Below, piece by piece: positions 3,996-63,994 of a stretch of 64,000 nucleotides of DNA. How positions within the stretch are numbered: position 1 is the first letter of the stretch; every line of letters begins with the position of its first letter. The stretch comes from Patescibacteria group bacterium. Lineage in GTDB: Bacteria; Patescibacteriota; Minisyncoccia; Phycocordibacterales; UBA9973. Location of the stretch: assembly GCA_038063635.1 (NCBI GenBank), contig JBBTUS010000006.1, positions 13,500 to 77,499 on the forward strand, in the 5' to 3' direction. The position numbers and the translations under genes were made by a program. The notes below the pieces were generated by a model. That model saw only the letters and a program-made list of their open reading frames with translations. It had not been told where the DNA came from and searched no databases.

Positions 3996-4123
3996 AAAAT
4001 AAGAAAAATTAAGTAAAAAAATTCAACGACAGTACATATTTGATTTTAATATATAAATATGTTATAATATATAATGTGTAATACATATTTGATTGGTTTT
4101 GTTATACTTAATATAATAATAAA

Positions 4124-5478: not shown

Positions 5479-5508
5479 GTTATTATCTAAAGTTTAATAT
5501 AATAAAAA

Positions 5509-21693: not shown

Positions 21694-21722
21694 CTTAAAT
21701 TAAAAAGATTAAAAGATTTTAA

Positions 21723-21765
21723 GAGCCGTGGGTTCCCTGTCCTAGGACTCCGAGGGCGAAGGCTC
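21723..21765. repeat. GC-rich hairpin element, family 1 (copy A), intergenic between scpA and scpB
   Basis: gagccgtgggttccctgtcctaggactccgagggcgaaggctc. The terminal inverted repeat is gagcc/ggctc. It is near-identical to copies at 36931 and 59283. Confidence 0.75.
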
Positions 21766-21793
21766 AGAAATCTTTTAATTTTCTTAATTTATT

Positions 21794-35081: not shown

Positions 35082-35103
35082 TTGTTTGTATTAAAAATGA
35101 AAC

Positions 35104-35778: not shown

Positions 35779-36873
35779 TTATATTCCTTCTTTTTTAAGC
35801 TGTTCTATAATCTCACGAGATTTGTGAGAAAGCTTGTTGGGAAGTTTAATATTTAATTTAATCAATAAATCTCCACGTTTTGTTTTTGAAACAGGCACAC
35901 CTTTGCCGCGCACGCGAAGTATTTCATTTATGGAAACACCTTCTGGAATGGTAACTTTTATTTCTCCATCTAAAGTTTGAATTGGATACTCCGTGCCAAG
36001 CAGCGCTTCAGAAAGTTTTAAATTTAGATTCATTACAAGGTCATTTCCATCTCTCTTAAATATTGAATGTGGCACAACATTTATTTTTATATAAAGATCC
36101 CCGATTGTTCCATTTTTTACAGCTTCTCCCATGCCACTCATGCGAATCATTTCTCCGTTACGAATTCCGGCAGGTATTGAAATTGATATTTCTTCTTCGC
36201 GACGCAATACTCCTGCGCCCTTGCAATGAGAACAAATTTCTTTTGGAATTTCTCCCACGCCTAAGCATTCATTGCAGAGTTTTGTACTTGAAATATTTCC
36301 AAAAATAGTTCTTTTTGCTTCGCGAATTTTTCCTTGTCCATTGCAAGTTTTGCAAGTTTGCGTTTTTGTACCTTCCTTGGCTCCGGAACCGCCACAAATA
36401 CTGCACTTAGATATTTTAGTAATTAAAACTTTTCTAGTAACGCCAAAGATGGAATCAGAAAAAGAAATTTGAATCTCCGTTGAAATATCGCGTCCACGAC
36501 GTGTTTCATATCTTTGTTCTCCGTTTCCTCCAGTAAAGAAATCGCTAAAAATGTCATTTAAATTTCCAAAATCAAATTCTGAACCAGAACCATTTTGAAA
36601 ACCGCTGAAATCAAAACCGCCGAATCCGCCTTGTTGGTATCTAGCGCCTCCGCCTTGATTTATATTTTTAAACCCAGCTCCAAATTGGTCATATTTTGAA
36701 CGCTTAGAGTCATCAGAAAGCACCTGATAAGCTTCATTTGTTTCTTTAAACTTAGCTTCGTTGCCACCTTTCTTGTCTGGATGATATTTGTGCGCTAACT
36801 TATAAAAAGCCTTTTTGATTTCATCTTTTGACGCATTTTTATTTACACCCAATGTATTATAATAATCTTTCAT
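35779..36873 (-). CDS. dnaJ: chaperone DnaJ
   Basis: The J domain is DYYNTLGV...HPDK. A G/F region follows, then four CxxCxGxG zinc-finger repeats and a C-terminal domain. Confidence 0.9.
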   Translation of the reverse strand: MKDYYNTLGVNKNASKDEIKKAFYKLAHKYHPDKKGGNEAKFKETNEAYQVLSDDSKRSKYDQFGAGFKNINQGGGARYQQGGFGGFDFSGFQNGSGSEFDFGNLNDIFSDFFTGGNGEQRYETRRGRDISTEIQISFSDSIFGVTRKVLITKISKCSICGGSGAKEGTKTQTCKTCNGQGKIREAKRTIFGNISSTKLCNECLGVGEIPKEICSHCKGAGVLRREEEISISIPAGIRNGEMIRMSGMGEAVKNGTIGDLYIKINVVPHSIFKRDGNDLVMNLNLKLSEALLGTEYPIQTLDGEIKVTIPEGVSINEILRVRGKGVPVSKTKRGDLLIKLNIKLPNKLSHKSREIIEQLKKEGI

Positions 36874-36930
36874 AATGTTTAAAGAAGCATTATATCATAT
36901 ATTATGTAAACATTTCAATAAAAATTTAAA

Positions 36931-36972
36931 GCGTCGTGGGTTCCTTGTCCTATATCTCCGAGGGCGAAGGCG
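36931..36972. repeat. GC-rich hairpin element, family 1 (copy B), between ATPase-1 and dnaJ
   Basis: gcgtcgtgggttccttgtcctatatctccgagggcgaaggcgc. The terminal arms gcgtc/ggcgc give a G-U wobble if transcribed. Confidence 0.75.
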
Positions 36973-36997
36973 CTAAAATTTCTATTGGAATGTTTAT

Positions 36998-38524
36998 TTA
37001 TATCATGGGTTCTGCTTCCTGTGAAGCTTTATTTGCCTTCAACGCTTCTTTTGAAACACCTGATTCAACCTCATCGGTTCTTTCTTCGTCTTCTTCGTAT
37101 TCCTCTTGCACTTTTCTCTTTGTTTTTCCTTCAATTATCGTCTTTTCTTCCGCGCTTCTTATAATTGTTGCTTCTTCTTCAGCGATAAGTCTAGCTGCAT
37201 CATGTTTTGATATAGAATATTTTCTGTGAGATGCAGAAATAATATCTTCTCGATAAGAAGGATGCGTAGGCGGTAGTACTCTCAAAGTTTCCGCGGAAAA
37301 TGGGTCATATGATTCTCCGTCAATCGTCATTTTTACATAAATTTCTCCAACCGCTAGATTGATTAAATCTTTTATGTCAAAAACTGGAGCAAATTCCGGT
37401 TTCATTTTAATCGCATCTTCTCCGCCAATTCTAAAAGCAATAATACTGCCACAGTTACCAAGCACTGCTTGATGTACTTTAGTAATAATCTGACCGACAT
37501 ACTGATGCGCTATAGTTAAATTTAGCGCATATTTTCTAGCTTCTGATAAAATATTTTCAAAAGTTTGCGTAACTACATTTTGAAACTCGTCTACATATAA
37601 GTAAAAATCCGTACGGTCTTTTTCCGGAATAGCCGCGCGCTCCATTCCTGCTTGTTTTATTTTAGTCAGGAATATTGAACCAAGAAAACTGGAATTTTCT
37701 TCCCCAAGGCGGCCCTTGGAAAGATTAATCAGAATTATTTTTTCTTCGTTCATTAATTTACTTATATCTATTTTATTTTGTTTCTGTCCAAAGATATTTC
37801 TAAGCAATGGGTCGGATAAAAATTGTCCGAGTTTATTTACAAGCGGAATAATAGCATCAGTATCAAATTTTTCAGACCAATCGGCGAATTCAATAGCGAA
37901 GAATCTTTTAACCATGTCGTCTGTAATATATTCAACAACTTTTTGCCTATAATTTCTGTCTGTCAGCATTGAAATCATCCCGCGCATGGTTGCATGCGGA
38001 TAATCAAGCAAGGCTAAACACGTAAAACGAAAAACGTGTTCAAGACGAGGTGTCCAATTGGCTCCGAATTGTTTTTGAAAAACCTCAATAAGACCTTGAG
38101 TAAGTTGAAACTTAAACATCGGGTCCACGTTCGCCAGTGGATTAAATGAAGCTGGATATTCAAGGTCTGTAGGGTCAATAATGCACACGTCTTCAACGCG
38201 TTCTTTTGGTATGTAGTCTAAAATAGCATCAATAACGTCTCCGTGCGGATCAATAAAACACAAGCCATGATTATATGTTATGTCTTGACGCATAAAAAGT
38301 TCAAGTAGTTTACTTTTTCCTACACCGGATTTTCCAATAACATAAAGATGTCTTCTGCGGTCAATACGCTTTATGCCGAAAATAAATTTCTTTTCTTCCA
38401 GAGCTGCCACATAATTCGTACGGCCAATAAAAGAAACCTCCTCTGGATTAACTTTTCCAAAAACAGGAAGTTCTGGCGGAGGAGGAGCATATTTAATTAT
38501 CTGCACTCGATTTGGCTTTGGCAT
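36998..38524 (-). CDS. soluble TraD/TrwB/VirD4-like P-loop ATPase (FtsK/HerA superfamily; paralog 1)
   Basis: GKSGVGKS is the Walker A, followed by IDPHGD. YLYVDEFQN is the Walker B and LTIAHQY is present. It has no N-terminal TM. It is a paralog of 42514..44763. Confidence 0.65.
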   Translation of the reverse strand: MPKPNRVQIIKYAPPPPELPVFGKVNPEEVSFIGRTNYVAALEEKKFIFGIKRIDRRRHLYVIGKSGVGKSKLLELFMRQDITYNHGLCFIDPHGDVIDAILDYIPKERVEDVCIIDPTDLEYPASFNPLANVDPMFKFQLTQGLIEVFQKQFGANWTPRLEHVFRFTCLALLDYPHATMRGMISMLTDRNYRQKVVEYITDDMVKRFFAIEFADWSEKFDTDAIIPLVNKLGQFLSDPLLRNIFGQKQNKIDISKLMNEEKIILINLSKGRLGEENSSFLGSIFLTKIKQAGMERAAIPEKDRTDFYLYVDEFQNVVTQTFENILSEARKYALNLTIAHQYVGQIITKVHQAVLGNCGSIIAFRIGGEDAIKMKPEFAPVFDIKDLINLAVGEIYVKMTIDGESYDPFSAETLRVLPPTHPSYREDIISASHRKYSISKHDAARLIAEEEATIIRSAEEKTIIEGKTKRKVQEEYEEDEERTDEVESGVSKEALKANKASQEAEPMI

Positions 38525-38565
38525 ATTATTTTGTTATTTTACTACAATTTTGGCTTATTTTCAAC

Positions 38566-38593
38566 CTGTTTCTGTTTCCCCTAAGTCCGACTT
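38566..38593. repeat. perfect 12-bp-stem palindrome tttcccctaagtc-cg-acttaggggaaa, sharing the core ccgacttagg with a palindrome inside pepA (23318-23342)
   Basis: Seen directly in the sequence. It is intergenic between Cys-rich paralog 1 and ATPase-1, and no T-tract follows. Confidence 0.6.
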
Positions 38594-38603
38594 AGGGGAA
38601 ACT

Positions 38604-40343
38604 TTAATACACTTCCTGTTGATAACACTTTTCACAATATATTATTTCGGGTCGGTTGGGAGCGTAGGATGTTTCAAATTCTACACTGCATTTTCCTTTA
38701 TGTTCATGGTTTTCTTTATCGCACATGCAAGACCTATGCCAAAGTTTCATTGGATTTCGTTGTTTTAATCTTTGATAATGTCTGCAGTTTGGGCAAAATC
38801 TTGGTAAAGCAATATTATTTTTTCTCAAAAAATTTAATTCATCTTTTATGATGCGATAAGCTTGCGTACATAAAGTTAACTCACTGCCATTATTGGGACA
38901 AGCTATAGTTTCATTTAGAATATCTTCTTTTACATCTTGAATATGATTTGGCAAATCGTTTGATTTTAACGTAGTTTTATATTCTTTCTTTAGAGGTTCT
39001 CTAAAAAAATATCCTTCTTCCGTTATTTCTTTTTTGGTTTTTGGAAAATATTCTTGGGCAATTGTTTCATTGTAGGAGAATGGAGATAATTCGCTTGGGA
39101 AAAATTCACCATATTTATATACTCTGCCTTTACTATCTACATAAGGCATATCGTTCATATGTTTTATTATTTTAGGAACTAATTCTTCATATTCTTCTTT
39201 TGTATATTTTTTATTCAAAATACAATATTCCCCTTTTCTTATTCCAATACAACCAAATAAATTTTTCGAGTTATAACACATATAAGTATAATTGGTATCC
39301 AAACAACTGTGGGTTAATATTGAAAAATGTTGATTAAACGCTTTTATTCCCGTATCAACCCCCTCATACAACAAAGAAGCGCTAGCCCCAAAACCATAAC
39401 AATCATAATTATTTTCTGCCCAACCTCCGTGAGCTGAAAATTTTGTATCCTTGTTGTCTCCATAAATATCAAAAGATTGTTTGGTATTTTTTGAATTCAT
39501 AATATTATCTCCGGTACTATCTGAAGATTTTATTATATTGACATATTTATTAGGAAATTTTAAAACAAAGTCAGTATATTTATTTTTAAAATCAGATAAA
39601 ATTTTATAATTTCCAAAATCTAGATTCTTTTTTATTTTTAAATACTCTTCTTTGGAATATTGTTTGTTAAAAACACAGTATTTTTTGTTATGTAAATTAA
39701 TACAACCTATGCAATCTTGGCAATTCACGCAATTTTTCAAAAAATAACAGTTTATAGATTGACCTGAATTATAAGAAAAATGAGTTTGAAACAAAGAATC
39801 AGAAAGTATGTCTTCATAACATAATTCGGATTTTACAATAGAATATGTGTCAACGCAGTTTTTTAAACTAGATGCGCCTTGAGAATAAAGAACGTCTTCA
39901 TTTAAATAGGAAGCATAAACAAGATAACAATTTTTACAATCAGCATTATGATTGCCATATGGAAAATTTACACAATTAGTATTGCCAACATTGGCTAAAG
40001 GCACTTTTAATAATAATTCTTTATATTGTTCGAAGAATGGCTTACTAAAATCATAATCTTTTCCATAAGAAGCAGCGTCCCAATCATCTCCCCACCAAAT
40101 ATCATGATCATAAACTTTTCCCTTAAATTCAGGGTTAAACATCGCTATTATTGATTTATTTGTTTTGTCACAAGTTCTTTTAAAGAGAGCTCTTTCATTT
40201 CTCCAAGTTAGCCTTCTTATCATCCTGCATTCCGGACAAAAAGTCGGAGGCGGAACTTTTATTTTCTCATAGAAATTAAAATCTTCCGGCTCTATTATAA
40301 AGTCTTTTTGGCAATTTTGACATTGTTGAATTTTTTTTTGCAT
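38604..40343 (-). CDS. large cysteine-rich zinc-ribbon-containing protein (family not recognised; paralog 1 of 3)
   Basis: At 579 aa it has more than 40 Cys. The N-terminus is CQNCQKDFIIEPEDFNFYEKIKVPPPTFCPECR. The C-terminus LPRFCPNCRHYQRLKQRNPMKLWHRSCMC...YCEKCYQQEVY is related to it. Internal repeats are YC[VI][FL]NK[QK]Y[ST]KEEY. Confidence 0.6.
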   Translation of the reverse strand: MQKKIQQCQNCQKDFIIEPEDFNFYEKIKVPPPTFCPECRMIRRLTWRNERALFKRTCDKTNKSIIAMFNPEFKGKVYDHDIWWGDDWDAASYGKDYDFSKPFFEQYKELLLKVPLANVGNTNCVNFPYGNHNADCKNCYLVYASYLNEDVLYSQGASSLKNCVDTYSIVKSELCYEDILSDSLFQTHFSYNSGQSINCYFLKNCVNCQDCIGCINLHNKKYCVFNKQYSKEEYLKIKKNLDFGNYKILSDFKNKYTDFVLKFPNKYVNIIKSSDSTGDNIMNSKNTKQSFDIYGDNKDTKFSAHGGWAENNYDCYGFGASASLLYEGVDTGIKAFNQHFSILTHSCLDTNYTYMCYNSKNLFGCIGIRKGEYCILNKKYTKEEYEELVPKIIKHMNDMPYVDSKGRVYKYGEFFPSELSPFSYNETIAQEYFPKTKKEITEEGYFFREPLKKEYKTTLKSNDLPNHIQDVKEDILNETIACPNNGSELTLCTQAYRIIKDELNFLRKNNIALPRFCPNCRHYQRLKQRNPMKLWHRSCMCDKENHEHKGKCSVEFETSYAPNRPEIIYCEKCYQQEVY

Positions 40344-40448
40344 ATGTTTAAAAATTTTTATGCTTCCAAATTTTAACTCGAAATTTTATAGTTTTCCATA
40401 TAATTGATAAGGTGTATATAAAATATTCTAGTTTTAATTTTATTTTTT

Positions 40449-42224
40449 TCATAGAAATTCAGCTTGATAACATTTTTCGCAATATACAATTTCTTTTCGG
40501 TTATTATTAATCGCTGTTTCAAATTCATTTTGGCATGGATTTTCTGCGTGAAAATGCCCAATGGTATTTTTATATTCTTTATTTTCTGATTCTACACCAT
40601 TACACATGCATTTTCTATGCCAGAGTTTTGGCGGATTAACCATTTTTAACCGTTCATAATACCGGCAATTAGGACATAAATGGGGCAAAGCTAGCCTCAT
40701 AGATTGATAAAATTTTAACTCGTCTGGTAAAATACGAAAAGCTGTCGTGCATTGTTCATTGCAATTACCTTTATGTTCACATTCAATAACTTCATTTAAT
40801 ATGGACTCGGTAACATCGTTAATATGATCAGGTAAATTTTCTGGTTGAATGGTTATTTTATAATCTCTTGTAATTGAATCACGCCAATAAAATCCTTGTT
40901 TTAACGCCTCTTCTTTTGTAAGAGGAAAATATTTATTTGCCCATGTTTCATTATATGCCCATAAAGAAAGTTCAGACGGATAAAATTCTCCATACTTATA
41001 GATTCTTCCCTTTTTATCAACATAAGGCATATCGTTCATATGTTTTTTAATTTTAGGAATTAATTTTTCGTATTCTTCTTTTGTATATTGTTTGTTTAAA
41101 ATACAGTATTTTTTTTGCTTTAGCCTAACACAGCCAAAAAGATTAGCGCCACCATAAATATTCTCGGAATATTCAACATCTATAACATTATTGCTCCCAC
41201 GACAAAAAAAACTTCGCTGTGATTGAGTGCTTCCATTTACTTCGTATAAAAGCTCTGAGGTATCCCCTCCAAAAGTAATATCATAACTATCTTTTAATAA
41301 AAGCCCGCAAGTAAAAATATTTTTGCAATTTTCTACACCTTCAAGAGTAATAAAACAGTTTTTACAATTTTTAGTATTTTGAAGACCATCACCGCTTACA
41401 TTATATGAGTTTATGACAATAGAAAATCGTCTTGGTGTCTTATAATAAAGTTCCATAAATTTTTCTTTCGCTTTTTGTATAACTTTATAGCTTCCTAAAT
41501 CCCATTTAGCTATTTGTTTCTTATATTCTTCTTTTGTATATTGAACATTAAAAATATTGTGTTTTTGATTTCTTAAATTTATACAGCCAAAGCAATTTGA
41601 ACATCCTATACAATAAAAAAGGAAAGATGAGTCAAGACACTCATCCGAAAAATAAGTAAATTTTGTATTATAGACTCCAGTTGAGTTTATGGTATTGTAT
41701 ACATGATCAGCATTCCAAATAACATCAGAATCCATAGAATCGCGAGAAAAAAGTGGAGCTTGACAATAATAAGAATTAATAGATTGAAAACCGCCAAAAA
41801 CAAAAGTGCAGTTTTTGCAACGAACATTTCCATGGCAATATTTATTATTAGTACAATTTCTTGAATTTGTCCCCTGTGACGGAACAATTTTTTGTAGTTC
41901 ATATAATTGTTGGAAAAATGGCTTATTAAAATCATAATCTCTACCATATAGAGTTCCATCCCAATCATCTTTCCACCAACACGGAGAACAATAAACGACA
42001 AAAGGAGTTTCAGGAGCAAATAAACTTACAATATTTTCTCCACATTTATCACACTTATCTTTATATAAAGCACGTTCTTCACGATAAGCTAAACGTCGAA
42101 TTAGTCTGCACTCCGGACAAAAAGTCGGTGGCGGAACCTTTATTTTTTCATAAAATAAAAAATCGTCTGGCTCGATTATAAAGTCTTTTTGGCAATTCTG
42201 ACAGTTTCTAGTTTCATTTTTCAT
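40449..42224 (-). CDS. large cysteine-rich zinc-ribbon-containing protein (paralog 2 of 3)
   Basis: At 591 aa its N-terminal 70 aa are about 70% identical to paralog 1. The C-terminus is LPHLCPNCRYYERLKMVNPPKLWHRKCMC...YCEKCYQAEFL. Confidence 0.6.
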   Translation of the reverse strand: MKNETRNCQNCQKDFIIEPDDFLFYEKIKVPPPTFCPECRLIRRLAYREERALYKDKCDKCGENIVSLFAPETPFVVYCSPCWWKDDWDGTLYGRDYDFNKPFFQQLYELQKIVPSQGTNSRNCTNNKYCHGNVRCKNCTFVFGGFQSINSYYCQAPLFSRDSMDSDVIWNADHVYNTINSTGVYNTKFTYFSDECLDSSFLFYCIGCSNCFGCINLRNQKHNIFNVQYTKEEYKKQIAKWDLGSYKVIQKAKEKFMELYYKTPRRFSIVINSYNVSGDGLQNTKNCKNCFITLEGVENCKNIFTCGLLLKDSYDITFGGDTSELLYEVNGSTQSQRSFFCRGSNNVIDVEYSENIYGGANLFGCVRLKQKKYCILNKQYTKEEYEKLIPKIKKHMNDMPYVDKKGRIYKYGEFYPSELSLWAYNETWANKYFPLTKEEALKQGFYWRDSITRDYKITIQPENLPDHINDVTESILNEVIECEHKGNCNEQCTTAFRILPDELKFYQSMRLALPHLCPNCRYYERLKMVNPPKLWHRKCMCNGVESENKEYKNTIGHFHAENPCQNEFETAINNNRKEIVYCEKCYQAEFL

Positions 42225-42232
42225 TTCTTAAT

Positions 42233-42475
42233 CTAAAAAAAGTCGTCTATCCACTTAAAAATTTTTGGTTCTACTTTTTTATATTTTTTCCATAATTTAT
42301 TTGGTAATTTTTCCAAATCTGGAAATTTATATTCATCTCTTAAAATCGGATAAAAAAAACAAATAAGTATTATCAGTATGGTAAGCGGTATACACCAAAG
42401 AAATATAGTAAAACCCAAAAAACGAATTATTAAAATAGCTACGATTATTGCAAATATTAAAGTTCCATTATGCAT
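42233..42475 (-). CDS. small membrane protein (two TM, 80 aa)
   Basis: It is hydrophobic and tightly packed between ATPase-2 and Cys-rich paralog 2. Confidence 0.4.
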   Translation of the reverse strand: MHNGTLIFAIIVAILIIRFLGFTIFLWCIPLTILIILICFFYPILRDEYKFPDLEKLPNKLWKKYKKVEPKIFKWIDDFF

Positions 42476-42513
42476 ATTTAATTTATATAAAAATTTTTAA
42501 ATTAATAAGTATA

Positions 42514-44763
42514 TTACTCTAGTATTTTTTTTAATACATCTTCCGGCACTTCACGAATTGTTCCCGAAGAAGAAATAGGGTTTTGTGTTTTTGGGTTTTC
42601 TTCTTTTTTGATAGGTATTTCTTCTTTCTTTTTTATCTCTTCCTTTACTTCTTTGGAAACTTCAGGCGATTCAGCTCCGTTAGATTTAGCTGAAATGAAA
42701 TTTTTTAATTTATCCATATCTTCCCTGCTTGCAGATCTATCTTTTGACGGAGAACTGGATGTTGGTTGCGTATTTTTTAATTCATTTAGAGAGATTGAAG
42801 GCGTTTCTTTTTCTATAGGTTTTTCTTCTTTATTTGTTTGAGAAGATGAAAAAACCTTATTTTCAGAAAGAGTTTTGTTTAAAATTTCTCTTAAAGCTAT
42901 ATTTTCTTTGGGTTTTTCCCCGCCTGCCTGCCCGACACGTTGACGCGAGTCATGCGGGCGGGCATTAGCTGTGCTAAAAGCATTGCGGTCAGGTTTTTGC
43001 GTTTGATTTACAAATTTATTTTTAATTGGTGCATATTGCTGTTTATCTCTTGGTTGTGGATTTGAAAATGAAGCTTTTTTATCAAAAACTCTTTTAATCG
43101 CCGAAAATATTCCCGGTCTTCTTATTGCTTCGTCCGGATGTTGGATATGTATATCAACTCTTTCTGGATATCTTTCTTCTCGGGCTCTTTCTATATTATT
43201 GGTATAAACTTCTTTTTTTTCAAATTCTATTCCTAAATCAGATAATGGCTTATAAAACTTTACTTCATCTTGTCTTACTTGGCTCATTGACCCTTTTATA
43301 GGCTTTAATTCTCCAGATTTCATTTTTGCTATGCAATCCCTGCAATACACTGGACGTCCTTTTTCTGGCTTAAAAGGCACAGTTGTTTCTTTTTTACAAA
43401 TAGAACATTCAGCGGGAAATTTTTCTACCTCACTAGCTTCATTTTCATTTCCAAGAGACATTCCACTCCAATTGTTTATTTCTCGTTCTACAACTTCTTT
43501 TGATCTGCAATATAAATCACGAGAAGATTTTATAACTTCTTCCTCTGTTTCTTTATTGCCTTTTGCCATTGGAGGTATTGTTCTAGCTGAAAAAGGTCTT
43601 GAAGTTACACCGTCTATCATTAATTTTAAATATATTTTATAGTTTGGAAGATTAACAATATCTTGAGGAGTAAATTCCGGGTCAAATTCTTTTTCTAAAA
43701 ATTCCGCATCATCGGCGCCGCAACGAAAAACTATCATCGTGCCAACGTTGCCAAAAACAGCATCACGAACTGCAGAACTTTTATCCGAAACAAGCTGGGC
43801 GGTATATTGATGAGCAACCGTCAGATTTAATCTGTATTTTCTGGCTTCAGATAAAATACCGGCAAAAGCGTCCGTCACAAAATTTTGAAATTCATCCACA
43901 TAAAGATAAAAATCTTTTCTTTCATCTTCTGGAATACGCACACGTTCCATCGCCGCAAGTTGAATTTTAGTAATAATCATACCACCCAAAAGCGAAGAAT
44001 TGTCTTCACCGATGCGCCCTTTGGAAACATTTACAAGAAAAATTTTTCCCTCATTCATTATGTCAAAAATGTTTATTGTGCTTTTTGACTGCCCTACAAC
44101 ATTTCGAATAATGGAAGTAGAAAGAAATTGACCTACTTTATTTTGGATAGGAGCAATAGCTTCATTTCTAAATTTGTCTTGCCAAGCCTCATATTCGTGA
44201 ATCCAAAAAGCTTTAATAACTGGGTCTTTTAGATTTGAAATTATTTTTTGGCGATAATCTTTGTCCACTAGCATTCTAGGTATGCCAAGAAGCGTAGTCC
44301 CAGGAGTATCTAGAAGAGCTAAAATAGCATTATTTAAAATGTATTCCATTCGAGCGCTCCAAGCATTGGCCCAAATTTTGGTAAATATTCCCATAAGACC
44401 TGAAGCGACCAAATGCTTGTATTTAGGGTCAATAAGTTCTAGAACATTAAAACCAACATGATATTCTGTGTCTGCCGGATTAAAATAAACAACATCTTTC
44501 ATGCGATTTGGAGGAATTGAAGAAAGAATTGCTTCAACATTTTCTCCGTGCGGGTCAACCATACATACACCATCGCCATTTTTGATGTTCTGAATAATCA
44601 TATTAAACATGAGCACAGATTTACCTGTTCCTGATTTTCCAAGAATATAAACATGCTGGCGCCTATCTTTGCGCTTTATGCCAAAAAGCTGATTTTTATC
44701 TCTATAAGTAGAATACCCAATATATGTAATATCTTTATTTAAAGGCAAATCTAAGGCGTTCAT
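42514..44763 (-). CDS. soluble TraD/TrwB/VirD4-like P-loop ATPase (paralog 2) with a 300-aa low-complexity C-terminal extension containing a CxxC...CxxC zinc ribbon
   Basis: GKSGTGKS, VDPHGE, YLYVDEFQN and LTVAHQY are present. The tail is Lys/Glu-rich and carries the family-2 repeat insertion. Confidence 0.65.
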   Translation of the reverse strand: MNALDLPLNKDITYIGYSTYRDKNQLFGIKRKDRRQHVYILGKSGTGKSVLMFNMIIQNIKNGDGVCMVDPHGENVEAILSSIPPNRMKDVVYFNPADTEYHVGFNVLELIDPKYKHLVASGLMGIFTKIWANAWSARMEYILNNAILALLDTPGTTLLGIPRMLVDKDYRQKIISNLKDPVIKAFWIHEYEAWQDKFRNEAIAPIQNKVGQFLSTSIIRNVVGQSKSTINIFDIMNEGKIFLVNVSKGRIGEDNSSLLGGMIITKIQLAAMERVRIPEDERKDFYLYVDEFQNFVTDAFAGILSEARKYRLNLTVAHQYTAQLVSDKSSAVRDAVFGNVGTMIVFRCGADDAEFLEKEFDPEFTPQDIVNLPNYKIYLKLMIDGVTSRPFSARTIPPMAKGNKETEEEVIKSSRDLYCRSKEVVEREINNWSGMSLGNENEASEVEKFPAECSICKKETTVPFKPEKGRPVYCRDCIAKMKSGELKPIKGSMSQVRQDEVKFYKPLSDLGIEFEKKEVYTNNIERAREERYPERVDIHIQHPDEAIRRPGIFSAIKRVFDKKASFSNPQPRDKQQYAPIKNKFVNQTQKPDRNAFSTANARPHDSRQRVGQAGGEKPKENIALREILNKTLSENKVFSSSQTNKEEKPIEKETPSISLNELKNTQPTSSSPSKDRSASREDMDKLKNFISAKSNGAESPEVSKEVKEEIKKKEEIPIKKEENPKTQNPISSSGTIREVPEDVLKKILE
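42913..42997. repeat. GC-rich palindromic element, family 2 (copy 1), in-frame inside the C-terminal tail of ATPase-2
   Basis: It is about 88% identical over about 85 nt to 50265-50349. The termini CCTGCCCG...CGGGCAGG form an inverted repeat. It encodes NAFSTANARPHDSRQRVGQAGGEK. Confidence 0.75.
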
Positions 44764-44851
44764 ATGTTAAATTATAACACTCTATAATAGATTTTAGCAA
44801 AAAATTTTAAGGGTTTTTATGTTTTTGGACCTGCTCCATAGTGAGTTTGCT

Positions 44852-46792
44852 TTATTTTTTAGGAGCTTCCTCTTCCGGCTTTTCTTTTGCCTCGTCTGTA
44901 GACGGACCTTCTTTATATTCTGCATCGCGAACTTTAGAATCTTTTTCTTCAGAAGTTGCTTGTTCTGATTTTGCTGAAGAACTGGTTTCATCTACTTTTG
45001 CCATAGCTTCGCCAATTTTAGACATCTCACTGGAAAGTTCTTCGGTGGCTTTTTTAATTGCTTCAGAATCCGTTCCGTCTTTTACTTCTTTCAAAGAAGT
45101 TATTTTAGCATTTACCCCATCCTTAATATCCGATGGGATTTTTGCTTCGTTATCTTTCAATGCTTTTTCCGCAGTGTAAATAATCATTTCCGCGGTATTT
45201 TTTATATCAACAATTTCTTTTTTCTTTTTATCTTCCTCTGCATGAAGTTCAGCATCGGCCTGCATTTTCTTAATATCTTCTTCTTTTAATCCAGAACTTG
45301 CTTCAATTTTAATTGATTGAGCTTTTCCGGAAGCTTTATCTTTTGCCGTAACATTTAAAATTCCATTTGCATCAACATCAAAAGTAACTTCAACTTGTGG
45401 AATACCGCGAGGTGCTGGCGGAATTCCATCTAATATAAATCTTCCTAAACTCTTGTTATCGGAAACCATTGGACGTTCTCCTTGCACAATATGAATTTCA
45501 ACAGAAGTTTGATTGTCGGCTGCAGTTGAAAAAATTTGAGATTTAGAAGATGGAATAGTTGTGTTTCTTTCAATTAATTTTGTAGAAACTCCTCCAAGCG
45601 TTTCAATACCGAGTGAAAGAGGTATAACGTCCAAAAGCAACACATCACGAACTTCACCGGCCAAAACTCCAGCTTGAACCGCAGCTCCTAAAGCCACAAC
45701 TTCATCGGGATTTATAGACATATTCGGTGTTTTTCCAAAAAGATTTTTCACCGCATCAACAATCGCCGGCATTCTTGTTTGTCCGCCAACCATTATAATT
45801 TCGTTTATTTCATTCATTTTAAACGGCGATGCTTCAAGAGCTTTTTTTGTTATTTCAATTGAACGGTCAATATATTCTTTTGTTAATGATTCCAGAGTTG
45901 CTCGAGACATTTTTAAAAGCAAATGTTTTGGTCCGGAAGAATCAGAAGTGATAAATGGAACATTTATTTCCGTTTCCATTGTTGTAGAAAGTTCATGCTT
46001 TGCTTTTTCCGCAGCTTCTTTTAATCTCTGATGAGCCAGCGGGTCTTTTCTGACATCAATGCCAGATTCTTTTTTATATTCCTCGGCTATCCAAGTAATA
46101 ATTTTTCTATCAATATCGCCTCCACCCATATGTGAATCTCCGTCAGTTGATTTTACTTCAATAATATCATCTCCAATTTCTAAAACTGAAACATCAAAAG
46201 TTCCGCCGCCAAAATCATAGACAACTATTTTTTCATTTTTCTTTTTATCAAATCCATAAGCCAGAGCTGCGGCTGTAGGCTCGTTTATAATACGTTTCAC
46301 GTCAAGTCCGGCAATCTGACCGGCATCTTTGGTTGCTTTTCTTTGAGCATCATTAAAATAAGCGGGAACAGTAATAACTGCTTCTGTTATTTTCTCGCCT
46401 AATTTTGTTTCAACATCTGTTTTAATTTTTTGCAAAATCATCGCTGAAATTTCTTCCGGACGATAAAATTTATCCAGCATTTTAACTTTTACGCCGCCAC
46501 TTTCACCAGCTTCAATTTTAAATGACGCAGTAACTTTATCTTTTTGCACTTCCGGGTCGTCGTATCTATGACCCATATAGCGTTTTATTTCTGAAATTGT
46601 ATTTTCCGGATTAGTAACTGCTTGCCTCTTTGAGAGAAGTCCGGTAATACGGTCACCATTTTTTGTAGTGGCTACTACAGAAGGCGTGGTGCGGTTGCCT
46701 TCTACGTTTTCAATAATTTTCGGTGCGCCTCCTTCAATAATTGCTACAGCCGAATTTGTTGTACCCAAATCTATACCTATTATTTTTGACAT
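44852..46792 (-). CDS. dnaK: chaperone DnaK (Hsp70)
   Basis: [23 protein letters not shown] and the rest of the Hsp70 signature set are present. Confidence 0.95.
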
Positions 46793-46809
46793 AATATTTT
46801 ATTTAATTT

Positions 46810-46839
46810 CCGCCTGAGGCGGATCAGCCCTTTGGCTGA
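46810..46839 (-). promoter_or_regulatory. two short GC hairpins in the dnaK 5' leader (ccgcctgaggcgg and tcagccctttggctga); no CIRCE consensus was seen
   Basis: Inverted repeats lie 18-47 nt upstream of the dnaK start codon. Confidence 0.35.
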
Positions 46840-46953
46840 AATTATTAATAATCTTATTTATACAACCATTATATACGAAACAAATATTTTTAGCAAGTTT
46901 TTAGTGACCGCGAAATACTTGTCAAAAGACAGTATATATTATAATATATAGCT

Positions 46954-47475
46954 ATGTCAAGAAAAATGGATTATTCTAATAAGATATTAAAGATTTTGGC
47001 CGAAAAACCAGTTGTTTCAGTTGAATCAATAAAAAGTGAGGATCCTAAGAAAAATTATGCTTTTGCTCGTTCAATAAAAAATTTAGTTGAATCAGGATGC
47101 ATTGAAATGCTTCAGTCTGATAATCAAACTTATTTAAAAATAACTAAAAAAGGTAAAGGCAAATTAAATTGTATAAAACTAGAGGGTGAAGAAGCGCTTG
47201 TGTCTAATACTTGGGATGGATTTTGGAGAATTATAATTTTAGATATTCCCGAAAACAGAAAACCGGAACGCGAAGCATTGCGTTATCTTTTAAAGAAAGC
47301 GAATTTTATTTGCGTAAAAAATACCGTATGGATTTCTCCTTATCCTTACGAAAATCTTTTTACAAACATTAAAAAAGATTTAGGTTTGGGAACTGAACTA
47401 ATGATTATAGTGACAAACAAGCTGGATTCAGAAACAAATTCAGCATTTTTAAAAAATGTAAATAAAATTCAGTAA
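46954..47475 (+). CDS. putative transcriptional regulator (small PaaX-like: wHTH plus a PaaX_C-like domain), divergent from dnaK
   Basis: DGFWRIIILDIPENRKPEREALRYLLKKANFICVKNTVWISPYP resembles the PaaX C-terminal domain pattern. A TTGTCA-N17-TATATTATAAT promoter is upstream. Confidence 0.4.
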   Translation: MSRKMDYSNKILKILAEKPVVSVESIKSEDPKKNYAFARSIKNLVESGCIEMLQSDNQTYLKITKKGKGKLNCIKLEGEEALVSNTWDGFWRIIILDIPENRKPEREALRYLLKKANFICVKNTVWISPYPYENLFTNIKKDLGLGTELMIIVTNKLDSETNSAFLKNVNKIQ

Positions 47476-49160
47476 ATTTCTTTATTGTAACAACTTTCGC
47501 AATAAATTATTTCTTTTCGGTCTGGAGAATAACTTGTTTCAAATTCATTAGAACAACCTTCTTTCATGCATTTTCGGTGCCAAAGTTTGCGAGGCAGACG
47601 AATTGCAAAACGTTTTTTATATCTGCATTCTGGACAAAAATGCGGTAATGGAATATTTTCTTTTTTATAAAATGCTAATTCGTCTTTTGTTATATTATAA
47701 TTTTTTTTACATTTATCACACGCTAAAACAGCCATTAAAATTTCATCATTAATATCTTTAATATCATCTGGGATATTTTCTAGTTTAACGGTTTCTTTTC
47801 CAAAAATTCCCGGAATCTTATCTTCCCATTTCCACCCGCGAGAAAGAATAGTTTCTTTCTCTTCCGGCATATAATAATTTCCCTGAGTTTCGTTATAACA
47901 AACAGGAGAAATAGATGGTGGAAAAAATTCTCCATACTCCCCTGTTTTCTTCATATGTTCTATTATTTTTTCTTTCAATTCCAAATATTCTTCTTTTGAA
48001 TATTTTTTATTAAAAATCATATACTCCCCTTTTTTAATTGAAATACACCCAAAAAGGTTTTGACAATTCTGACAAGAGTCCGAATATTCTATATCTCTAT
48101 TGTCATAACAAAGATGACAAAATTTACTGTTATATAAACCTTTGCATCCGTGAATTTCATACGACAATTCCGTACCCCAACCCACATGATACAAATCCAT
48201 TGAAGATTTTAAGGAAACAGATGCGTAAATATTTTTTGTATCTTCAAGCATTTCCACATCAAAACTATTTATTGAATTCTTACTATTAAATATCATATTG
48301 CCGGTACAATTAATATTGCGTTCGCTTATCACGTAGCGATGAATAGAATCCTTAATCATTAAATCAAAAAATTCTTGTTTTAACTTCTCACGAACATTAT
48401 AAGAACCTAAATTATATTCTTTTATTTTTTCTAAATAAGCCTCACGAGAATATTGTTTATTTTTAAAAACATATTTTTTATTGCGCAAATTAGACGATAA
48501 AAAACAATCATTGCAGTTACGACAATCGTAACAATAATAGCAATTTACGCAATTTTCCAATAAAAAACCAAATTGGCATTGATATGATTTTCTTGAATCA
48601 ATACATTCATAAAGTTTTTCTCCGCTGTCATATATATAACTGCAATCCATGCAGTTTCTAGATTTCATTATCCAAGTTGAATAAAGTACATCTTCAGTAT
48701 TGAAACAGCTAAAAGATAAATAAGCATTTTTGTCATCTCCGGAATGATTGGCATAATCCGAATTAATGCTATTTTTACTCAAAAGGGCTACACGAGGAAC
48801 TTCAAGCTGTAATTCATGATATTGTTCAAAAAATGACCTGGAAAAATCAAAATCACGTCCATAAACAGCAGGGTCCCAGTTATCTCCCCACCAGCATTTC
48901 AAACAATAAACTTTTAATAATTTATTTGGAGAATAAACGGTAACAATGCTTTTATTGCACAAGTCGCAGTCTCGCCTATATAAAGTTCTTTCGTTTCGCC
49001 AAGCATAACGACGTTGTTGACGACAATTCGGACACCACAAAGGCGGTGGAACTTTTATTTTTTCATAAAAATCAAAATCTTCAGGTTCTATTGTAAAATC
49101 TTTTTTGCAATTCTGGCAATTTTTATTTTTCTGTTGTTGGCTCATTATATTCAAAGACAT
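47469..49160 (-). CDS. large cysteine-rich zinc-ribbon-containing protein (paralog 3 of 3), translationally coupled to grpE
   Basis: At 563 aa its N-terminus is CQNCKKDFTIEPEDFDFYEKIKVPPPLWCPNCR and its C-terminus is LPHFCPECRYKKRFAIRLPRKLWHRKCM...YCESCYNKEIY. Its start overlaps the grpE 3' end by 38 nt. Confidence 0.6.
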   Translation of the reverse strand: MSLNIMSQQQKNKNCQNCKKDFTIEPEDFDFYEKIKVPPPLWCPNCRQQRRYAWRNERTLYRRDCDLCNKSIVTVYSPNKLLKVYCLKCWWGDNWDPAVYGRDFDFSRSFFEQYHELQLEVPRVALLSKNSINSDYANHSGDDKNAYLSFSCFNTEDVLYSTWIMKSRNCMDCSYIYDSGEKLYECIDSRKSYQCQFGFLLENCVNCYYCYDCRNCNDCFLSSNLRNKKYVFKNKQYSREAYLEKIKEYNLGSYNVREKLKQEFFDLMIKDSIHRYVISERNINCTGNMIFNSKNSINSFDVEMLEDTKNIYASVSLKSSMDLYHVGWGTELSYEIHGCKGLYNSKFCHLCYDNRDIEYSDSCQNCQNLFGCISIKKGEYMIFNKKYSKEEYLELKEKIIEHMKKTGEYGEFFPPSISPVCYNETQGNYYMPEEKETILSRGWKWEDKIPGIFGKETVKLENIPDDIKDINDEILMAVLACDKCKKNYNITKDELAFYKKENIPLPHFCPECRYKKRFAIRLPRKLWHRKCMKEGCSNEFETSYSPDRKEIIYCESCYNKEIY

Positions 49161-49731
49161 TTACTTGAGCAACACGTATCACGTGATTATCAAGTTTATA
49201 TCCTTTTTGAACAACTTCACAAACTTTATGGTCTTCTTCTTTTTTATCAGTCGGTATTGCCTTTATTGATTGGTGAATATTAGGGTCAAAATTCTCACCT
49301 GCCTCGCCTATCGGTTTTACTCCATATTCTTCAAAGATTGTATTTATTTGAGTATAAATATGTTCAACTCCCCTTCTCCAACTTTCATCTACTTTTTCCC
49401 AAGCTTCTTTGTTTGAAAACGCCATATTAAAACTGTCTAAAACACTCAAAAAACTAAAAAGAATACGCTCGCGCACTGCTTCTGAAAAATTTATTTTTCT
49501 ATCTTCTTCTTGTTTTTTATAATTGGTAAATTCTGCTCGCTCTTTTTGCCAGCCAGTCAAATATTCTTCTTTCTCAGTCTTGCACGCTTTTAAATCAACC
49601 CTCAATTTTTTAAGGGTTTTCTTTAAATCTTCCTCTCCGTTTTCATTAAATTCAAATTCAAGAACTTCAGATTCGTTTTTTTCTTCCGTTGGTTCCGAAA
49701 CTTCAGATTTTTCTTCTTCATTATCTGCCAT
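49123..49731 (-). CDS. grpE: nucleotide exchange factor GrpE
   Basis: A coiled coil is followed by the GrpE motif RAEFTNYKKQ and the C-terminal beta domain. Confidence 0.85.
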   Translation of the reverse strand: MADNEEEKSEVSEPTEEKNESEVLEFEFNENGEEDLKKTLKKLRVDLKACKTEKEEYLTGWQKERAEFTNYKKQEEDRKINFSEAVRERILFSFLSVLDSFNMAFSNKEAWEKVDESWRRGVEHIYTQINTIFEEYGVKPIGEAGENFDPNIHQSIKAIPTDKKEEDHKVCEVVQKGYKLDNHVIRVAQVNVFEYNEPTTEK

Positions 49732-62024: not shown

Positions 62025-63335
62025 TTAAGTAGGTAAGTCAGTCGGAGGAGCCGCTTCTTTTGATTCAATGCGTTCAAGAGTTGGAACTTTAAGTATCTGA
62101 CCCGGGAAGTGCCATAAGGTGGCTAATTCCTCTACATTTAAGACAAAAGTTTCAGAATGAACAAATGGATGAAGAAGAATGGAAAAAGGCCAAAAGATAG
62201 TATGCACACTAAAAAGACGATGCCGCAATGGTTCATGAAAAAAAGAACGTTCTCTGTATTCATGAAGCATTCTATTCGCCAAAATCATAACTGTTTTAGG
62301 CGTAGCCGAAAAATATCCGCTATAAGCGTCCGCCTGAGTTGAATTAAAACGCATAAGCTGATTGGAGAAAGGATTGGCATACTGGCGAAAAATCAAACGA
62401 AGATTGCGTCGGCTGTTCATTTGAAAAGCTTCTTTTTTAGCAACATAATAAATTCTAATTCCAGTATCAAAGCCAAGCTTAGAAAGTTTTCTACCAGATC
62501 CTTTAATCATTTCATCCATAAATCCTGGAGCACGAATTTCTTGAGAAAAGCTTCCACCCATCTTATCTCCTGTTGCTCTTGCACGTGAACCAGTATATGG
62601 CACTAATTTTTTCTTTAACTGTATTTGTCCCTCTTCCACCCAATTATGTTTGCCAAAATATGTGCTTTTAGTATGATATGTCTTTTTTGAAGGCGTAATT
62701 ACAATTTGCATCCACATCTGCTCTCCTTTTTGGATAGAACCAAAAAGTTCTATAACCGAAGAAATTGGGTCAACTTTAAATTCTTCTTTGGGGTCTTTAT
62801 CTAAACCAAAATCAACATAAGTTTTTAAAGAAAATACTTCAGGTTTTTCCAATTTAAATTCACATCCCCAGCCATTCCAGGCGCTGTCTGGAGAAATTTT
62901 ATCAATCGCCAAAGTGTAATCTTCCGCTACTTTTACTTGAGCTTGAGGATACTGCGCATACATTTGCGTTTCAATCAATTCTTTCAAACGAGAAGGTGCG
63001 CGCAGAAAAAAATGCACTTGTCCGTCTATTGAGGCAATTTCCAAAGAAAACCAAAACCAAACCGCTCCCTGCCAATATTCTTCACGTCCGCCTTTCATAC
63101 TCCACTGATAAAGAGCATTGGTTAAAAATAATTCCATTGCTTTTGGAGACCTTAAAACATCTCGCGGTGGAATAATTTCAAGTAAAACCCACTCTATGCC
63201 GGAAATAAAATCCTGCTGGATATAGTGAATCCAAAGTTTCCAACCAATATACACAAGAAACACCGTCGCGAGATAAGGCAAAAGAAATAGAATTACTTCC
63301 CAAAAATAGACAAGTATTATATTAACATTAATCAT
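62025..63335 (-). CDS. hypothetical membrane-anchored protein (436 aa)
   Basis: An N-terminal hydrophobic region is followed by a Trp/Phe-rich domain. No family was recognised. Confidence 0.4.
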   Translation of the reverse strand: MINVNIILVYFWEVILFLLPYLATVFLVYIGWKLWIHYIQQDFISGIEWVLLEIIPPRDVLRSPKAMELFLTNALYQWSMKGGREEYWQGAVWFWFSLEIASIDGQVHFFLRAPSRLKELIETQMYAQYPQAQVKVAEDYTLAIDKISPDSAWNGWGCEFKLEKPEVFSLKTYVDFGLDKDPKEEFKVDPISSVIELFGSIQKGEQMWMQIVITPSKKTYHTKSTYFGKHNWVEEGQIQLKKKLVPYTGSRARATGDKMGGSFSQEIRAPGFMDEMIKGSGRKLSKLGFDTGIRIYYVAKKEAFQMNSRRNLRLIFRQYANPFSNQLMRFNSTQADAYSGYFSATPKTVMILANRMLHEYRERSFFHEPLRHRLFSVHTIFWPFSILLHPFVHSETFVLNVEELATLWHFPGQILKVPTLERIESKEAAPPTDLPT

Positions 63336-63388
63336 TATCTATATTTTAATATAAAAACCTTAAAATAAGAAGCAATTTTGTGGAAAGA

Positions 63389-63994
63389 TTAAACTAGAGT
63401 GTAAAGCCCGTCTTTATTTTTTTTGAAATATTTTGAATTAGCTAGATTCACTAAAATAGTATTTTTTTTAAAATATCTCTCTTTCATTACTTTTTCCGCC
63501 ACTTGTTCTTTGGTAAGCGGTCCTTCTCTTTTTAAAATATCCCGAATTACCTCTCGCGCAATGCCCGCTTTATACCCCCATTCAGAGAGAGCATACATTC
63601 CGCGTCCGACTAAAACAAAACGAGGGTCTTTAATAAGTTCATTATGGCAAGTTGCATAATGTATTTTCTTGCCAAAAATTTTCGTTATTGCATCAGCCAC
63701 TTCTCTAAAATGCATCGGGGAACCATGGCGTCTCATAACCAAAAATGCATAATCTTTAACTCCGCGTGTTCTAATATTGGGTGAAGTTGATTTTCCCCAC
63801 TCTCCAAGAGGATTCTTAGAAATTGTCTTGGACATAGCTAGCCATCTTTTTGCAATTTCTTCATTCTTATATTGCTCGGAAACATCTTTCATTTCATTAA
63901 AAAACTTTTTTATCATTTCTGCTTCTAAAATAATATCTTCATCATTTAAGCTTGAATAAAGTTTTTTTAGAGAGTCATGAACACGAGATGCCAT
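63389..63994 (-). CDS. hypothetical protein; the ORF is open toward the window edge, so the true start may lie beyond 64000
   Basis: No stop is seen upstream within the window. No family was recognised. Confidence 0.35.
   Translation of the reverse strand: MASRVHDSLKKLYSSLNDEDIILEAEMIKKFFNEMKDVSEQYKNEEIAKRWLAMSKTISKNPLGEWGKSTSPNIRTRGVKDYAFLVMRRHGSPMHFREVADAITKIFGKKIHYATCHNELIKDPRFVLVGRGMYALSEWGYKAGIAREVIRDILKREGPLTKEQVAEKVMKERYFKKNTILVNLANSKYFKKNKDGLYTLV

Follow-up and report, generated by a model that had tools for sequence, protein, structure and literature searches.

A cassette of coupling-protein-fold ATPases and cysteine-rich proteins among the chaperone genes of a Paceibacteria clade, with a partial tie to heat shock

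In a stretch of 64,000 nt from a Patescibacteria group bacterium (GenBank assembly GCA_038063635.1; the whole stretch analysed is hereafter the window), the chaperone genes grpE, dnaK and dnaJ are bona fide orthologs of those in the hrcA-grpE-dnaK-dnaJ operon and lie in the usual order on one strand, but seven other genes, spanning ~11.5 kb, are interleaved with them. These include two ATPases (ATP1 and ATP2) and three cysteine-rich proteins (CYS1-3), and the locus raises the question of whether such genes form a unit of their own and whether that unit belongs to the heat-shock response. A first-pass annotation had proposed a duplicated two-component module, made of a Cys-rich protein and a TraD-like ATPase, within a single Hsp70 operon. 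The comparative analysis partly supports that proposal, which was right in part on the type of parts and wrong on the unit: the locus is a single cassette, ATP2 - CYS array - ATP1, in which old ATPase paralogs flank the array, and not a duplicated two-gene module. The arrangement is real, conserved and well beyond chance, and its tie to heat shock is partial.

Profile searches covering 28 open reading frames (ORFs) of the window, combined with the ORF listing, yielded the minus-strand order grpE, CYS3, dnaK, ATP2, a small transmembrane (TM) ORF, CYS2, CYS1, ATP1, a REP-like repeat and dnaJ, interrupted between CYS3 and dnaK by a PaaX-like gene on the plus strand. The positions, strands and identities first assigned to the genes held for all ten of them in the ORF listing and the Pfam and NCBIfam searches. 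The cassette, on the minus strand, comprises ATP2 (42514..44763, 749 aa), CYS2 (40449..42224, 591 aa, 47% identical to CYS1), CYS1 (38604..40343, 579 aa) and ATP1 (36998..38524, 508 aa). CYS3 (47469..49160, minus strand; 563 aa, or 558 aa from the deposited start at 49145) is 46% identical to CYS1 and adjoins grpE; no extra ATPase or CYS copies were detected elsewhere in the window. ATP1 matches NCBI AAB493_00830 at 100% identity, and MEK75723xx entries correspond to the remaining genes. From dnaJ to dnaK, the intergenic gaps given by the ORF coordinates are 124, 79, 105, 8, 38 and 88 nt, a span of 8-124 nt that agrees with the 8-125 nt originally reported. The small ORF within this run (42233..42475, minus strand; 80 aa, annotated AAB493_00845), for which a hydropathy scan indicates two TM segments, returned no tblastn match at 1e-8 in 157 loci and is not conserved in relatives, making its membership of the cassette doubtful. 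The surrounding region is a core housekeeping stretch of a low-GC Patescibacteria metagenome-assembled genome, with rpsI, rplM, rplQ and rpoA upstream of grpE.

Conservation of this layout was assessed in three samples of gene neighbourhoods, encompassing 77 CYS-centred genome loci, 80 ATPase-centred metagenome loci and eight dnaJ-centred relatives, the last picked for long contigs only and blind to CYS or ATPases (individual loci are cited by L numbers). The CYS-centred loci presented a median of three CYS genes and a maximum of 10, and an ATPase was found within ~10 kb in 38 of the 77, where a rough estimate for two ATPase genes in a 0.7-Mb genome gives ~6% by chance. A full ATP-CYS-ATP bracket was present in 26 of these loci and occurs in both orders, ATP2..ATP1 and ATP1..ATP2 (the latter in L031, L044 and L056). 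Eighteen of the 77 also contain dnaK, always as PaaX(-) dnaK ATP2 CYSn ATP1 dnaJ or a close variant, and seven loci with informative flanks contain the bracket without dnaK or dnaJ. The Staskawiczbacteria layout, for instance, reads SecD SecF sig4 X ATP2 CYSn ATP1 CYSn, and the ~6-8 kb upstream are free of chaperone genes.

The blind sample gave a concordant picture of the clade, with ATP1 directly upstream of dnaJ in all eight relatives and the dnaK-ATP2 junction visible in four. One of these relatives (L162) has other genes upstream of ATP2, and another (L164) presents ATP2-ATP1 without CYS between them together with a CYS gene that overlaps grpE. Likewise, close ATP1 orthologs in the ATPase-centred loci keep the dnaK/dnaJ layout. 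At greater distance, a relative with DnaJ 51% and DnaK 78% identical has PaaX(-), dnaK and dnaJ adjacent and a lone CYS gene 6 kb away, and most of the distant ATPase loci have no CYS and combine SecD-SecF, a Sigma70_r4 + HARE-HTH protein, a membrane protein (X) and one or more ATPases. The unusual arrangement noted in the window is hence no accident of one genome, recurring as ATP1-dnaJ in 8/8 dnaJ-centred relatives and with dnaK in 18 CYS-centred loci. The suggested linkage to chaperones across related genomes stands for ATP1-dnaJ within the clade and fails for the Staskawiczbacteria-type cassettes, which lie beside SecDF, the HARE-HTH protein and X without chaperones; the chaperone linkage of the cassette is specific to a clade. 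Synteny downstream of the cassette (cysS, L21, recR, dnaB) is equally conserved in the dnaJ-centred relatives, indicating that their gene order is generally stable.

Both ATPases matched TraD/VirD4/TrwB/DUF87 profiles in Pfam and NCBIfam, with ATP2 scoring above the cutoffs of four Pfam families: TrwB_AAD_bind (36.5 vs 20.5), DUF87, T4SS-DNA_transf and TraG-D_C. Their Walker A (GKSGVGKS and GKSGTGKS) and Walker B (YLYVDEFQN) motifs are intact, and phmmer returned a match to TrwB (E 4e-5). Both fall far under the equivalog cutoffs for type IV coupling proteins (T4CPs) in NCBIfam (conju_CD1115, 45.6 bits for a cutoff of 250; SXT_TraD, 44.9 for a cutoff of 366). The AlphaFold model of ATP1, of moderate quality (pLDDT 73, pTM 0.78), bears out the TrwB/TraD/VirD4-type assignment made at the outset: its best Foldseek match is TrwB-deltaN70 (E 1.3e-11, ~420 aligned columns, target-normalised TM-score 0.60-0.63), followed by Cag-beta and DotL and then by HerA (E 6e-10 to 1e-7), and helices at residues 135-259 match the all-alpha domain insertion. 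The lack of an N-terminal membrane anchor was likewise confirmed, since the hydropathy scan detected no TM segment in either ATPase (best 19-residue Kyte-Doolittle averages of 1.19 for ATP1 and 1.13 for ATP2, none reaching 1.6, with the small TM ORF at 2.8). The fold matches and the absent TM segment define ATP1 and ATP2 as coupling-protein-fold ATPases minus the membrane anchor.

ATP2 differs from ATP1 in its domain composition. Its ATPase core (aa 1-440) is followed by a CxxC-x17-CxxC treble-clef zinc domain at aa 447-482 (43318..43425, minus strand), which scores above the cutoffs of PF23477 (49.5 bits, cutoff 27) and TIGR04272 (51.4 bits, cutoff 36), and by a tail of ~270 aa; the deposited name of the protein is 'CxxC-x17-CxxC domain-containing protein'. 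The two ATPases are 44% identical over 442 aa and belong to two paralog lineages, each with its own orthologs, the ATP2 type always carrying the zinc domain. Both types are also present in lineages without CYS. A recent tandem duplication of a [CYS + ATPase] unit was ruled out, given that ATP1 and ATP2 orthologs 64-89% identical occur in many genomes. ATP1 and ATP2 are anciently diverged paralogs that bracket the CYS genes with no one-to-one pairing, and the notion of a repeated two-component module is not sustained.

ATP1 is, moreover, strongly conserved, with orthologs 82-91% identical across many Nomurabacteria and Paceibacterota assemblies. Median identities in syntenic loci are 86% for both ATP1 and DnaK, 76% for RpoA, 75% for DnaJ and RpsI, and 67% for ATP2, and the dnaJ-centred set gives 85-89% for ATP1 and 74-81% for DnaJ; ATP1 evolves as slowly as DnaK. 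A phage origin was rejected, as viral contigs in IMG/VR contained one ATPase relative and no CYS relative.

As a separate observation, the ATP2 tail contains, in frame, one of two copies (42882-42997 and 50234-50349, 81% identical) of a GC-rich element of ~116 nt, the other lying at the rpsI 5' end. The encoded peptide, ..ARNAFS.A.ARP.DSRQRVGQAGGEK.., also appears in unrelated proteins (L026, 11749-12546) and in the ATP1 tail of L060, and the element resembles a small mobile insertion that coding regions can accommodate.

The ATPase component has been described before, as an orphan family. A 2025 survey (PMC12102498) identified 5,713 VirD4-like homologs in 2,918 Patescibacteria genomes, about two per genome, of which 148 lie near virB4, and its authors proposed that they were 'possibly exapted'. 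ATP1 and ATP2, which fit these homologs in number per genome and in rarity near virB4, very probably belong to that set. The searched text of the survey holds no occurrence of the CYS family, protein X, the HARE-HTH partner, dnaK, dnaJ or a chaperone link. When compared with the T4CPs (VirD4, TraD, TrwB, Cag-beta and DotL), ATP1 has the same fold, Walker A and B motifs and a helical insertion matching the all-alpha domain. Unlike them, the cassette ATPases lack the N-terminal TM domain and come as two conserved paralogs, of which ATP2 has an added zinc domain and a long tail, and their neighbours are X, the HARE-HTH protein, secDF and CYS arrays. None of the 28 window ORFs covered by the scan had a Pfam match to type IV secretion system (T4SS) or relaxase genes.

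The hexameric HerA-type translocases (HerA-NurA and the defence complexes HerA-DUF4297 and HerA-Sir2) belong to the same ATPase superfamily as ATP1, and HerA likewise has an adjacent partner protein. In contrast to these systems, the cassette occupies a strongly conserved core-genome position and has no nuclease, Sir2 or DUF4297 partner among its neighbours, and HerA ranks below the T4CPs as a match. PADLOC returned weak matches of the ATPases to HerA models (E 2e-8 to 3e-3) and to mad8 (E 1.9e-11 and 4.7e-15); the other five neighbours scanned with it gave no match to the MADS system. With weak PADLOC matches for the ATPases and nothing for CYS, assignment to a known defence system was rejected.

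The CYS proteins, in turn, resist assignment, as had been anticipated from their sequence. CYS1-3 contain 5.2-6.2% Cys and are 46-47% identical over their full length, but profile searches place none of them in a Pfam, NCBIfam or PADLOC family, and searches against the PDB by sequence and with Foldseek were also negative. Profile searches also detected no J-domain, GrpE or other chaperone signature in them. The family is nonetheless very large. At least 7,940 relatives of CYS1 were identified among 8,000 candidates scored from a set of 5.8 billion proteins; identity is 60-89% for the top matches, precomputed Pfam domains are absent throughout, and those relatives that their source names are all called 'hypothetical'. 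A search of 50%-identity representatives returned 3,818 CYS clusters at E <= 1e-3 and 1,499 at E <= 1e-30. All named sources (Nomura-, Staskawicz-, Jorgensen-, Lipton- and Sungiibacteria) are Parcubacteria/Paceibacteria, and individual genomes contain at least nine (JAHFNS01) or 11 (JAKAGX01) copies, amounting to roughly 2% of coding capacity in genomes under 1 Mb.

Alignment of the family outlined four Cys4 sites conserved family-wide (C8/C11/C36/C39, C205/C208/C211/C214, C482/C492/C517/C520 and C539/C552/C570/C573) and a fifth in CYS2 and CYS3 (C58/C61/C79/C82) with the exact CxxC-x17-CxxC spacing. Two of these four or five sites resemble the CxxC-x17-CxxC domain (TIGR04272; PF23477, zf_Tbcl_2) of ATP2, which has been shown experimentally to bind zinc in small proteins of M. 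mazei (Methanosarcina) (PMC12704099). ATP2 lies above the threshold for this domain and the CYS copies below it: the isolated ZnR2 segment of CYS2, which shares the exact spacing and a F.P....VYC..C signature, has TIGR04272 as its sole family match among 18,950 (E 1.5e-4, below threshold), and the isolated ZnR4 and ZnR2 segments of CYS3 match it at E 0.0084 and 0.084, both below threshold and with no other family. The corresponding scores are 21.5, 15.8 and 12.6 bits, for a cutoff of 36. Weak matches to zf_Tbcl and zf_Tbcl_2 were obtained in 29 and 5 of 62 CYS members, respectively, and the loss of three ZnR2 cysteines has left CYS1 orthologs with one of the four. An iron-sulfur protein was considered and rejected: the family as a whole conserves the CxxCxxCxxC motif (C205-C214), but its spacing is not that of ferredoxins and CYS1 orthologs have a degenerate form of it. 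The motif is treated here as a putative Cys4 metal knuckle. The idea of a DNA mimic or DNA binder, as judged by charge, was also set aside, the near-neutral pI (family median 6.3) being uninformative.

Between its terminal zinc-ribbon pairs, CYS1 contains two solenoid-like segments, each closed at its end by a conserved 'C..FN.QY.KEEY' cap. The first solenoid of the CYS proteins has a 12/24/36-residue period with one Cys per coil, and each protein has an internal duplication of ~150 aa; the comparison class for such segments is that of small-coil beta-solenoids, such as insect antifreeze proteins, curli CsgA and left-handed beta-helix enzymes. Column entropy is low in the conserved termini and caps (1.35-1.66 bits) and highest in the solenoid segments (2.5-2.6 bits). 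The 216 CYS proteins analysed fall into 105 clusters at 58% identity, and genomes with 86% identity in ATP1 have arrays that differ in content and order. The CYS multigene family, spread across Paceibacteria, combines conserved zinc-ribbon ends with two variable, solenoid-like segments of 12-residue repeats.

Two further genes recur with the ATPases. In the window they lie 17 kb upstream of the cassette on the same strand (62025-63994): protein X (62025..63335, minus strand; 436 aa), with an N-terminal TM segment (aa 1-19) and tblastn matches to X homologs at E 1e-26 to 1e-49, and the HARE-HTH protein labelled sig4 (63389..63994, minus strand; PF05066, E 1.6e-10), which is cut by the window end and whose full-length homolog contains Sigma70_r4 plus HARE-HTH. 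Protein X has no Pfam family. SecD-SecF-sig4-X-ATPase synteny was found in ~35 loci, with an X homolog directly upstream of an ATP2- or ATP1-type ATPase, and in other lineages the HARE-HTH protein is a conserved partner of X and the ATPases. Protein X may be the missing membrane anchor of these soluble coupling-type ATPases. The string of SecD-SecF, Sigma70_r4 + HARE-HTH, X and ATPase is kept across diverse Patescibacteria (L005, L093, L100, L108, L118, L129 and others), and X has a conserved C-terminal EELAxLWHFP motif.

The relationship of the cassette to the chaperone genes was examined through their transcription signals and junctions. The dnaK gene (44852..46792, minus strand; NF001413, 929 bits, cutoff 648; TIGR02350, 902 bits) is preceded by a conserved double promoter and a 28-bp palindromic, operator-like site (46894..46921, minus strand; CAAGTATTTCGCGGTCACTAAAAACTTG), conserved 5' of dnaK in relatives, of which this is the sole copy in the 64-kb window (0 expected). 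The palindrome is flanked on either side by a promoter-like site. The uniqueness of this palindrome led us to reject an operator common to dnaK and the cassette, and CIRCE/HrcA control was discarded because no CIRCE was detected within three mismatches. Where the textbook operon has CIRCE, the window presents this different palindrome before dnaK and, divergent from it, a gene for a PaaX_M-like winged-helix regulator (46954..47475, plus strand; PF20803, E 8.7e-19). The divergent PaaX/dnaK pair is conserved in 25 loci. The PaaX_M-like protein is probably a local dnaK regulator that lies outside the cassette, and together with the palindrome it constitutes a candidate non-HrcA dnaK repressor system in this Paceibacteria clade. 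Separately, the dnaK 5' leader (46800-46850) contains two small GC hairpins, TCAGCCAAAGGGCTGA and TCCGCCTCAGGCGGA, and relatives have different GC hairpins there.

On the downstream side of dnaK, the gap to ATP2 contains a strong terminator hairpin (A-tract/GC-stem/T-tract) in eight of 10 relatives, with a folding energy of -17 to -22 kcal/mol and z about -5.5, followed by a conserved TGnTATAAT element. These terminators were seen by direct folding; a consensus terminator scanner missed them because their A- and T-tracts pair into the stem. The window lacks the hairpin (dG 0) and keeps the element, at the same position as in relatives, within a promoter-like site before ATP2 (44771..44800, minus strand; TTGCTA-18-TATAAT with an extended -10 TG). 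The terminators, the unique dnaK palindrome and the lack of CIRCE contradict the proposed single heat-shock operon inclusive of dnaK.

The other two chaperone genes present close junctions with the cassette genes. The grpE gene (49123..49731, minus strand; Pfam GrpE, E 1.5e-34) overlaps the start of CYS3 with its 3' end. The reported overlap of 38 nt holds when counting from the first ATG and becomes 23 nt from the deposited Met6 start (49145, 558 aa, MEK7572395.1); the overlap itself recurs in four other genomes, so that the grpE stop overlaps a CYS start in five (the window, L027, L035, L077 and L164). The gap between ATP1 and dnaJ (35779..36873, minus strand; TIGR02349, 385.6 bits, cutoff 377.2) measures 5-16 nt in 10 of 25 relatives; in L160, L162 and L164 it measures 7-18 nt. 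In the window, L019 and L079, this junction has been expanded by a REP-like palindromic repeat, the 'family-1 repeat' of the first-pass annotation (36920..36981, minus strand; 62 nt), absent from most relatives; 3' of it, the window presents a good promoter match before dnaJ (36889..36918, minus strand; TTGAAA-18-TATAAT, TG), a promoter-like site by consensus match only. Taken together, the terminator, operator and junction data suggest that dnaK is its own regulated unit, and that dnaJ and grpE are each joined physically to genes of the cassette. The three window copies of the repeat (21712-21773, 36920-36981 and 59272-59333) are 81-87% identical, and an IS200/Y1_Tnp-like gene (34355-35026), possibly RAYT-like, lies 2 kb from the repeat and has homologs that recur in related loci.

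Our preferred reading, held tentatively, is that the ATPases are an exapted coupling-type motor acting at the membrane with X, that the CYS proteins are its clients, cargo or adaptors, and that the cassette is co-expressed with co-chaperones. By analogy with TrwB, Cag-beta and DotL, ATP1 and ATP2 would form a ring motor of conjugative origin, exapted for a housekeeping task, with X as its tether to the membrane. The CYS proteins, as its diversified clients, cargo or adaptors, might dock via the zinc modules conserved at their termini, which are related to the CxxC-x17-CxxC domain of ATP2, and present variable solenoid faces. Co-expression of DnaJ and GrpE would then provide the Hsp70 co-chaperone capacity with which these zinc-rich, solenoid-type proteins are folded or held, and would not put the cassette into the heat-shock regulon. 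A bolder version, which we regard as a long shot, takes the CYS arrays to be zinc-stabilised beta-solenoid cargo or effectors that the X-tethered, two-paralog motor would pass to an export channel (the Patescibacterial T4SS or another route near SecDF), with DnaJ and GrpE keeping them translocation-competent. If true, it would represent a previously unrecognised host-interaction delivery system of episymbiotic Paceibacteria and would explain the orphan coupling proteins.

Several observations weigh against a CYS-serving motor coupled to the chaperones. About half of the CYS-centred loci have no ATPase within reach, including arrays of 10 (L029) and eight (L041) CYS copies, and ~60 of the 80 ATPase-centred metagenome loci lack CYS; the ATPase family being far wider than CYS, the ATPases must have a CYS-independent role. 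In one relative (L158/L159, 3936-15088), reached via CYS protein P0044 (an entry that NCBI gives for Parcubacteria bacterium RAAC4_OD1_1 as well), a lone CYS gene is embedded in a polyamine-synthesis cluster, in the order Orn/Arg decarboxylase, saccharopine-dehydrogenase-like, CYS, Orn_DAP_Arg_deC, CN_hydrolase and PAD_porph. An ATPase-CYS interaction is suggested by synteny and by a weakly shared domain, and hhalign aligned CYS ZnR2 with the ATP2 zinc finger weakly (E 0.011, probability 3.9%); the solenoid segments, in addition, were modelled at a pLDDT of only 57-66. dnaK is insulated from the cassette in most relatives, gene order in small syntenic genomes can persist without selection, and, as cited in PMC12102498, the coupling-protein homolog was not essential in the sole Patescibacterium tested genetically.

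Many of these points are what would be expected from inherited synteny without a functional link, a possibility that we consider doubtful yet worth weighing closely. Under it, an ancestral rearrangement placed the ATPase pair between dnaK and dnaJ, and CYS genes, which amplify in tandem, pile up in a few permissive, well-expressed spots; the CYS proteins would act alone, for example in a zinc-ribbon nucleic-acid-binding or structural role, and the ATPases would perform unrelated housekeeping with X and the HARE-HTH protein. Cassettes away from chaperones in other lineages, the distant relative with adjacent dnaK and dnaJ, the many ATPase loci and CYS arrays that lack the other component, the equally conserved downstream gene order and the separate dnaK terminator and operator all agree with it. 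However, the ATPase paralogs bracket CYS genes in both orders and in two or more genomic contexts, a pattern unlikely by chance, and the bracket persists while array content turns over. Furthermore, two independent tight junctions join the cassette to co-chaperone genes (the grpE/CYS overlap and the 5-16 nt between ATP1 and dnaJ), and ATP2 and CYS appear to share a zinc domain. The same junctions, together with the layout conserved in 8/8 dnaJ-centred relatives and the missing terminator after dnaK in the window itself, could also be invoked for a stress-linked machine, in which the stretch from grpE to dnaJ is a co-regulated heat-shock unit and the CYS proteins, which their many zinc sites and solenoid-like repeats may make demanding to fold, are zinc-ribbon co-chaperones or obligate Hsp70 clients. 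This explanation appears unlikely in view of the terminator after dnaK in 8/10 relatives, the conserved separate promoter-like element of ATP2, the dnaK operator unique in the window with no CIRCE, the cassettes elsewhere without chaperone genes and the lack of a J-domain, GrpE or other chaperone signature in CYS. Even less probable, to the point of being barely tenable, is an island for defence against phages or other mobile genetic elements, pairing HerA/FtsK-type ATPases with a rapidly diversifying effector or sensor family. Its appeal lies in the weak PADLOC matches of both ATPases to mad8 and HerA models, the HerA defence complexes among the fold matches and the variation of CYS copy number and content between genomes, but ATP1 is conserved like DnaK, the cassette holds a fixed core-genome position and not a variable island, no nuclease, Sir2, TIR or methyltransferase partner or CYS match in PADLOC was found, viral contigs yielded no CYS relatives, and HerA comes after the T4CPs among the fold matches.

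Patescibacteria account for a large share of the diversity of bacteria, and no role has been assigned to most of their lineage-specific proteins. With the ATPase bracket around CYS, the orphan coupling proteins left unplaced by the 2025 survey gain their first concrete candidate partners, and the cassette, X and the HARE-HTH protein define a testable multi-protein unit. The tight junctions with dnaJ and grpE suggest that these organisms, whose proteostasis machinery is minimal, put Hsp70 co-chaperones to a dedicated use. A limited literature search did not find the CYS family, the ATPase bracket, the X/HARE-HTH partners or the co-chaperone junctions.

Other features of the window were recorded outside the cassette. 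Just after dnaJ, a 198-aa ORF (35104-35700) without a Pfam family is followed downstream by a perfect, bidirectional terminator-like hairpin with a 16-bp stem (35048-35082). An Rfam scan of the window returned one tRNA and nothing else. Finally, direct repeats of 84-104 nt, 81-93% identical and containing a C-rich motif (CTCTAACCCCTAACCCCCAATCC...), occur at 3826-4021, 4970-5073 and 5424-5507, where they flank short ORFs near 4-5.5 kb.

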